Assembly: GCA_000004695.1 (NCBI GenBank)
Contig: CH709160.1
Location: 1 to 8,346 of the forward strand
Origin: Dictyostelium discoideum
Lineage: Eukaryota
Direction of reading: 5' to 3'
DNA: 8,346 nucleotides
Each line of letters opens with the position of its first letter. The stretch's first letter is position 1. The notes beneath the pieces were generated by a model, which was not told the origin of the DNA, made no database searches, and saw only the letters and a program-made list of their open reading frames with translations. A program made the translations under genes and the position numbers. This document shows, piece by piece, positions 3,026 through 3,121 of the stretch.

Positions 3026-3121
3026 TTAAAAATTACCTTAAAAATTACCTTAAAAATTACCTTAAAAATCACCTTTAAAATTACCTTAAAAATCACCTTT
3101 AAAATTACCTTTAAAATCACC
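3026..3121 (+). repeat. Tandem array of 8 x 12-bp units (TTAAAAATTACC / TTAAAAATCACC / TTTAAAATTACC) in the right subterminal region of element A. There are 2 further units at 3183-3206 and 4 direct units at 2641-2690.
   Basis: Direct reading of the sequence. The corresponding array in copy C (5276-5323) has only 4 units. Confidence 0.85.

Follow-up and report, generated by a model that had tools for sequence, protein, structure and literature searches.

Transposons of the CACTA/Mirage/Chapaev (CMC) superfamily duplicate 2-4 bp of target DNA on insertion, and the duplication left by Mirage is 2 bp. Mirage and Chapaev represent animal branches of the superfamily, and the Pfam family DUF1258 was built from Caenorhabditis proteins. 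In Dictyostelium discoideum, the DDT class, with its members DDT-A, DDT-B and DDT-S, was reportedly defined by Gloeckner et al. 2001 (Genome Res 11:585). It is established that the subterminal repeats of CACTA elements act as cis-determinants to which TNPA-like proteins bind; these repeats are distributed asymmetrically over the two ends and differ by family, and the TNPA-like proteins of different elements are not homologous to each other (PMC2613891). DDT elements have been called 'putative DNA transposons' in the literature up to 2022 (PMC9012585, PMC4559204). A superfamily classification of DDT was not found in the literature, and these two papers mention neither a superfamily nor the 12-bp arrays described below. 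The DDT-B consensus measures 5471 bp and carries an A/B-box motif within its first 428 nt, which attracts the tRNA-gene-targeting retrotransposon TRE5-A (PMC9012585).

The window considered here is the whole 8,346-nt stretch of contig CH709160.1. Sequence comparison resolves it as a D. discoideum transposon cluster in which mobile elements are nested. Copy A (2521-3304, plus strand) is a complete, non-coding and non-autonomous element of 784 bp. It is bounded by imperfect 59-nt terminal inverted repeats (TIRs) at 2521-2579 and 3246-3304 (inverted-repeat search), contains no ORF of at least 80 aa (ORF scan), and shares 94-96% identity with 16 other short copies. A degenerate LTR-retrotransposon pol flanks it, with the RNase H domain falling at 517-1233 and that of the reverse transcriptase at 3302-3760. 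Three arrays of 12-bp units lie within copy A. Array 1 (2603-2685) consists of about three forward AAGGTAATTT-type units abutting four reverse AAATNACCTT units as a head-to-head palindrome; array 2 (3026-3121, minus strand) holds eight tandem 12-bp units in a single orientation; and array 3 (3184-3205, minus strand) is a pair of units some 100 bp from the terminus. An internal duplication of about 105 bp, visible as a period-105 repeat in copy C (TRF), takes in both array 2 and array 3.

The neighbouring copies are less complete. Copy B (4193-4271, plus strand) preserves just 79 bp of a short-element terminus, which match the first 79 bp of A, C and other copies at 96-99% identity. A minus-strand fragment of an autonomous element (4272-4866) follows, comprising the last exon of a second gene (ORF2) and downstream DNA; it is 91% identical to L002 18282-17777 and 90% identical to L006 14112-13612 (L numbers designate loci collected for comparison), and motif arrays are absent from it. 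Across 4193-4866, the short terminus is thus joined directly to the autonomous 3' region with the array region missing, a junction that, judged from the sequence, looks like a rearrangement or an aberrant transposition product. Copy C (4867-5452, plus strand) is a short element without its far terminus. Its own terminus lies at 4867, its similarity to full copies ends at about 5452 as read from the sequence, and its array 2 occupies 5276-5323 on the minus strand. The segment equivalent to 2735-2826 of A is missing from C, deleted between the short homologies aacgg and aacca. At three independent loci (window 4849-4867, L002 17613-17632 and L004 15381-15386), other elements have inserted a few to about 20 bp from the same point in an autonomous 3' region, which may be a local insertion hot spot.

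The initial annotation treated copy D as an inverted copy of the short element. Copy D (5492-8346, plus strand) is instead the left end of an autonomous element of about 5 kb together with its transposase gene, and it runs off the window. It is 86% identical to L001 from 9218 onward and 98.9% identical to L008 from 9004 onward; the full autonomous element in L001 spans 9218-14251 (5034 bp) and is flanked by a 2-bp duplication, TG. The transposase ORF (6496-8346, plus strand) comprises 617 codons and is still open at the window end. Copies A and C lie in the orientation opposite to D, so that the 3304 end of A corresponds to the autonomous left end (the 5492 end of D). The orthologous locus of the window was sought in another assembly through protein P0015, and a different locus (L008) was obtained.

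The eight units described for copy A are present in an in-phase 12-bp register. Read in 12-nt steps, 3026-3121 gives TTAAAAATTACC three times, followed by TTAAAAATCACC, TTTAAAATTACC, TTAAAAATCACC, TTTAAAATTACC and TTTAAAATCACC, and strict AAATNACCTT matches are at 3030, 3042, 3054, 3066, 3078, 3090, 3102 and 3114. TRF reports the tract at 3025-3129 with period 12 (8.8 copies, 91% matches, score 161) and also with period 24 (4.4 copies, 96%). Four units are likewise found in copy C, namely TTAAAAATTACC, TTAAAAATCACC, TTTATAATTACC and TTAAAAATTACC, the third with one substitution (TRF: 5275-5343, period 12, 5.8 copies, 82%). The unit types in 3026-3121 are TTAAAAATTACC/TCACC, and in array 2 of copy A the 10-nt core AAGGTNATTT reads on the minus strand. 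This core occurs as 24 strict motifs in the window, whereas 500 first-order Markov simulations gave 0.39 on average and never more than 3. Over the window and seven loci (166 kb), element DNA contains 4.5 motifs per kb and the remaining DNA 0.097 per kb, a 46-fold enrichment.

To place these arrays in the family, eight loci around homologous transposase genes were taken from three assemblies, and element ends were located by scanning for the terminus CACAGC(A/G)AAGAAAAA, which gave dozens of ends. These resolve into 21 short copies of 325-784 bp with termini at both ends, plus several autonomous ends. By identity, the short copies form three lineages: a modal group with 98-100% identity within it, an A-like group 94-96% identical to the modal group, and a third lineage (iii) about 84% identical to the others, four copies of which are 98-100% identical. 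Every one of the 21 short copies carries arrays, and 20 carry all three in the same places. The exception, L002 5012-5336, is a 325-bp internal-deletion derivative that kept only four forward units. In the short copies, array 1 is found 83-165 bp from one end and sets three forward units head to head with three to four reverse ones. Towards the other end, 180-275 bp from it, comes the unidirectional array 2, and a pair of units about 100 bp from that same end makes up array 3. Autonomous copies bear the motif at both ends and asymmetrically: the left end has three units, the right end 6-14 strict ones. The arrays are thus subterminal and occur in both direct and inverted orientation across the copies compiled. 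The initial annotation had held that arrays absent from most members would point to a local microsatellite expansion unrelated to the element; since they occur in every member examined, that argument fails.

The initial annotation also proposed that the arrays are visibly unstable between copies. In 18 copies from the two close lineages, namely window copy C and 17 complete ones, array 2 was sized by the distance between conserved anchors. It is 94 bp long in 12 copies, which is the mode, and 93 bp in two; in copy A it reaches 130 bp (36 bp or three units above the mode), and in copy C it shrinks to 82 bp (12 bp or one unit below). Tract lengths of 130, 94 and 82 bp bear out a real difference in unit number. 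The extent of the instability is modest, with 14 of the 18 close copies having the same length within 1 bp, and the window holds two of the four array-2 length variants by happenstance. Modal copies have four strict units in array 2, and the remaining differences in strict count (three versus four) are point substitutions. In one 690-bp short copy (L008 577-1266), arrays 2 and 3 are fused by a deletion of about 69 bp, which suggests recombination between the two arrays. The pattern in copy A is TTACC, TTACC and then (TTACC, TCACC) three times, which fits a 24-bp periodicity; its nearest relative, L002 4029-4760, has (TTACC, TCACC) twice. Steps in multiples of 12 bp, together with the 24-bp pattern of A, give the variation the signature of slippage or unequal exchange. 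Copy A is an older copy, 94-95% identical to the 98-100% modal group. The eight-unit form is a single, relatively old copy set against a stable norm, and it displays no sign of greater success. Variation is greater at autonomous right ends, where L001, L002 and L006 have 6, 12 and 14 strict units, respectively.

All termini start with CACAG and follow CACAGC(A/G)AAGAAAAA over about 21 bp. A 2-bp target duplication flanks 18 of 20 insertions of this family and five of five in a sister family, or 23 of 25 together. A 3-bp duplication was considered and ruled out (0 of 25 insertions). Copy A is one of only two of the 20 insertions without a matching duplication, its flanks being TA at 2519-2520 and GA at 3305-3306; a later point mutation is likely, as the site lies in a degenerate reverse transcriptase gene interrupted by stops and frameshifts. 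In L003, what looked like the right end of the element was set aside as a rearrangement. Two inverted termini there, at 6776 and 14558, have the same 8-bp flank (cttctgtt), which indicates an inverted duplication of an element end with its flank and not a normal boundary.

A second class of repeats occupies the DNA just inside the termini, where TTTAAAGC-type units recur with an 11-bp period, the 12-bp arrays lying 80-300 bp from the end. In the window, the 11-bp repeats (TTTAAAGCNAA / TTTAAATTCAA) are found at 2542-2585, 3229-3283 and 5513-5575. They occur at both ends of short and autonomous copies, form the palindrome TTTAAAGCCAATTT ... AAATTGGCTTTAAA in copy D, and may be a second binding motif.

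The transposase gives little away in direct searches. By BLASTP, the 6496 ORF matches only hypothetical proteins of D. discoideum and D. cf. discoideum, of about 770-830 aa, in which no Pfam domain is found; no direct Pfam match is obtained for the transposase even at E <= 10, including Transposase_21 and DUF1258. A profile of 13 Dictyostelium transposase proteins (A1), searched against 1.8 billion representatives, retrieved 80 proteins at E <= 0.001, about 59 of them distant and matching the region from the second Asp to the Glu. Four of ten distant matches scanned exceed the cut-off for PF02992, Transposase_21 (tnp2, the CACTA transposase), and several of the ten also match DUF1258. Aligned by hhalign with 13 distant relatives, the A1 profile scores a probability of 99.55% (E = 2.4e-23, 457 columns). 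This alignment sets D310, D387 and E636 of protein P0003, as well as the HxxxH and the CxxC that follows the second Asp, against invariant residues of the relatives. LLRIFsD thereby falls on ntDG, TMDIPEF...CHTC on DaxAra...C..C, NFHLLLHYP on H..LH and SAExFEaQ on SaFxFE, all of these being invariant columns of the relatives. The window ORF keeps the first two catalytic Asp residues (RIFTDSMQ and TMDIPEF), and the Glu lies beyond the window.

By this sequence comparison, the transposase is best placed as a distant DDE relative of the CMC superfamily. The assignment draws together a tnp2/Transposase_21-type core, a DDE triad with a CxxC shortly after the second Asp, TIRs that start with CAC, and a short target duplication, here of 2 bp. 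The N-terminus carries C-x2-C-x12-H-x3-H followed by C-x2-C-x15-H-x5-C, of C2H2 and C2HC type, and these zinc-binding motifs are conserved across both this family and its sister. A full-length AlphaFold model of the transposase was too poor for searching (pLDDT 39). A model of residues 1-105 (pLDDT 79.6) predicts a beta-beta-alpha unit followed by helices; it had no significant match when compared with the PDB, so the zinc-finger call rests on the Cys/His spacing and the beta-beta-alpha unit.

Comparison with En/Spm, the model invoked by the initial annotation, is instructive in both directions. The likeness holds for a DDE transposase of the tnp2/Transposase_21 lineage, for termini that begin with CAC, for an asymmetric subterminal unit of about 12 bp reiterated in both direct and inverted orientation, and for a second element-encoded protein. 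Non-autonomous partners that retain the ends are a further resemblance (PMC2613891). It does not extend to the conserved 13-bp CACTA termini, replaced here by CACAG, nor to the 3-bp target duplication. Lacking both, the family falls within CMC but not in En/Spm proper. The motif sequence is also unrelated to that of En/Spm, the host is an amoebozoan, and the Dictyostelium transposase carries its own N-terminal zinc fingers. With Mirage and Chapaev, the family shares distant transposase relatives that match DUF1258.

Among described Dictyostelium elements, the family analysed here is most likely the published DDT, with an autonomous DDT-A of about 5 kb and a short DDT-S of about 0.76 kb, an identity that we assume. 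The host is D. discoideum, and the sizes found here are about 5.0 kb for autonomous and about 0.76 kb for short elements. The sister family fits DDT-B; the DDT names were matched by organism, sizes and the A/B-box remark. Like DDT-B, the sister family has B-box-like sequences near its left end, at 160-230 bp from it. B-box-like sequences also occur in the interior of the short element, with GAGTTCGAAGCC at 2712-2723 (plus strand) and GGGGGATCGAATCCC at 2783-2797 (minus strand) in copy A; the same segment is present in all short copies (for example, L005 8841-9599), and a tRNA-like stretch adjoins the second. Neither ARAGORN nor Rfam calls a tRNA in this tRNA-like segment, which is therefore described only as B-box-like. 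Given that the DDT-B A/B-box draws TRE5-A, the short elements may act as landing pads.

Short and autonomous elements of the family have only their ends in common, that is, termini and arrays, and their interiors are unrelated. The first ~180 bp of the short element match the autonomous right end (77-78% identity), and the last ~300 bp match the autonomous left end (71-72%). The short copies are MITE-like, with TIRs, a target duplication, no coding capacity and ends common with an autonomous partner. Two autonomous/short partner pairs are distinguished, in which termini and motif content co-vary. CACAGCAAAGAAAAATGCACC termini belong to short lineages i and ii and CACAGCAATGAAAAATGCTCATTT termini to lineage iii; type 1 is rich in strict ACCTT units, and type 2 has more AAATTAACTT-type units. 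The autonomous element also encodes ORF2 downstream of the transposase, a gene of three exons and about 270-280 aa (for example, L003 12619-13610, L001 12676-13630 and L008 11622-12596). Its product has no recognisable domain, has homologues only in Dictyostelium and bears no similarity to TNPA. ORF2 evolves faster than the transposase, with about 55% identity between sublineages whose transposases are 81-84% identical.

Autonomous and short elements differ at one position of the motif. The variant motif reported for copy D is indeed there, as AAGGTAATTT at 5581, AAGGTCATTT at 5604 and, in reverse complement, AAATGACCTT at 5627. It is no one-off change, for the C variant is conserved at autonomous ends. 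This trio (5581-5636) comprises AAGGTAATTT and then AAGGTCATTT separated by 13 bp from AAATGACCTT, the last two as an inverted pair, and it is identical in window copy D, L001, L002 (twice) and L004. At autonomous ends, 28 of the 50 motifs are of the C variant AAGGTCATTT, as against 0 of 189 motifs in 19 short copies, in which the variable position is A in 130, G in 53 and T in 6. At autonomous right ends, the C, A and G variants occur together. Degeneracy in the core is thus confined to position 6, and it is this position that tells autonomous and short elements apart.

The sister family offers an independent point of comparison. Its transposase is 47-51% identical to that of this family by alignment (39-48% in BLASTP alignments), its termini are CACAGGGGCG / CACAGGGGCGAAAA, and its target duplication is 2 bp. 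Its arrays are built from a 13-bp unit, GTATACTTATTAA, unlike the 12-bp unit, in the same subterminal architecture, and they vary by copy, with 4-9 units on the left and 12-23 on the right. One 6.2-kb coding copy (L007 7978-14222) was found, as were derivatives of about 2.5 kb at L004 12926-15381, L004 15516-18057, L007 3656-6148 and L003 15817-18563.

Taken with the established pattern of CACTA subterminal repeats, to which the analogy is drawn, these observations make it probable that the arrays are cis-acting subterminal binding sites of a CMC cut-and-paste transposon, with a unit number that varies by slippage. An element-encoded DNA-binding module would occupy the 12-bp sites multivalently. 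Candidate binders are the N-terminal double zinc finger of the transposase, named by the initial annotation, and the ~276-aa product of ORF2, of which that annotation was unaware. Binding would pair the two element ends and position the DDE catalytic domain on the termini, and the short elements would be mobilised in trans because they have kept termini and arrays. The difference between eight and four units would reflect replication slippage or unequal exchange in 12- or 24-bp steps, together with inter-array recombination; such variation would accumulate after insertion, with A having gained three units and C having lost one. In sequence terms, a cis role is favoured by the ends, i.e. termini and arrays, being all that short and autonomous elements share, by the two partner pairs in which termini and motif content change together, and by the recurrence of the same architecture with a different unit in the sister family. 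Counted against it, all copies might have the arrays through descent from one master copy. Moreover, lineage iii proliferated with only about five strict motifs per copy, which implies that many units are not required. As the C variant is absent from short copies, a model of cis-acting sites must further assume either that position 6 is not read or that the binding partners differ. Were position 6 read, binding to autonomous and to short elements would differ in affinity or in the protein involved, the zinc-finger transposase in one case and the ORF2 product in the other, which would amount to a discrimination between self and parasite; we regard this extension as distinctly unlikely.

The degenerate arrays of lineage iii, four copies of which are nonetheless 98-100% identical, are also what would be expected if the arrays were functionless AT-rich minisatellites, produced by ancestral slippage and kept by descent, with the terminal ~20-60 bp sufficing for transposition. 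The unit shares the AT-richness of a very AT-rich genome, slippage does alter unit number, and individual inserted copies are under no selection. Set against this, the arrays are among the few features common to autonomous and short elements with unrelated interiors, and the motif core survives even where overall identity between lineages has dropped to 84%. Adjoining AT-rich DNA hardly contains the motif (0.097 per kb), and the sister family, at 47-51% transposase identity, carries independent arrays made of another unit in the corresponding subterminal positions. We therefore consider a purely passive origin unlikely. A tract of four to five A in each unit raises another possibility, namely that the arrays bind a host factor, such as the AT-hook protein CbfA, or shape chromatin or DNA structure through phased A-tracts. 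Within the unit, it is the G/C-containing core ACCTT that is conserved and not the A-tract, and repeats spaced every 12 bp do not keep step with the DNA helix, which makes simple bending unlikely. The unrelated unit of the sister family also fits family-specific recognition better than a shared factor. Depletion of CbfA does leave DDT-A and DDT-S under-expressed (PMC4559204), but the host-factor explanation as a whole seems very improbable.

The folding of array 1 bears on a further alternative, in which head-to-head units would fold into long stem-loops within read-through transcripts, making the arrays hairpin templates for small RNAs that silence the family, or would form cruciforms in excision. 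Array 1 folds very strongly as a hairpin (-38.8 and -42.1 kcal/mol, z = -9 to -10; the first value is that of copy A, with z = -9.1), and it gives sub-threshold matches to models of MITE-derived miRNAs such as mir-548. Thug-S transposons of Dictyostelium are a precedent, as they give miRNA-like RNAs (PMC4894637). All Rfam matches are far below gathering scores, however, and in array 2 of copy A (3026-3121) the units all point one way and form no structure with each other (z = -1.4). Array 1 could plausibly act as a hairpin or a source of small RNAs, which is not plausible of array 2; such a role would add to a cis-acting one and not replace it. As an account of the arrays in general, it is hardly probable at all.

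Within a repeat family that is already known, the subterminal arrays are typical of an element type that is known as well, and the variation in copy number represents ordinary slippage, normal for this class and without wider consequence. What the analysis adds is modest: the CMC assignment, the 2-bp duplication, the definition of the sites and the partition of the variants. Should position 6 be read after all, the family would provide an amoebozoan model for how the number and variant of subterminal repeats tune CMC transposition. A long-known, unclassified family of Dictyostelium 'putative DNA transposons' is placed in the CMC superfamily, and its likely cis-elements are defined as termini, 2-bp duplication, 12-bp subterminal sites and autonomous/short pairs. 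This helps the repeat annotation of dictyostelid genomes and provides concrete candidate sites and proteins in a genetically tractable haploid host.
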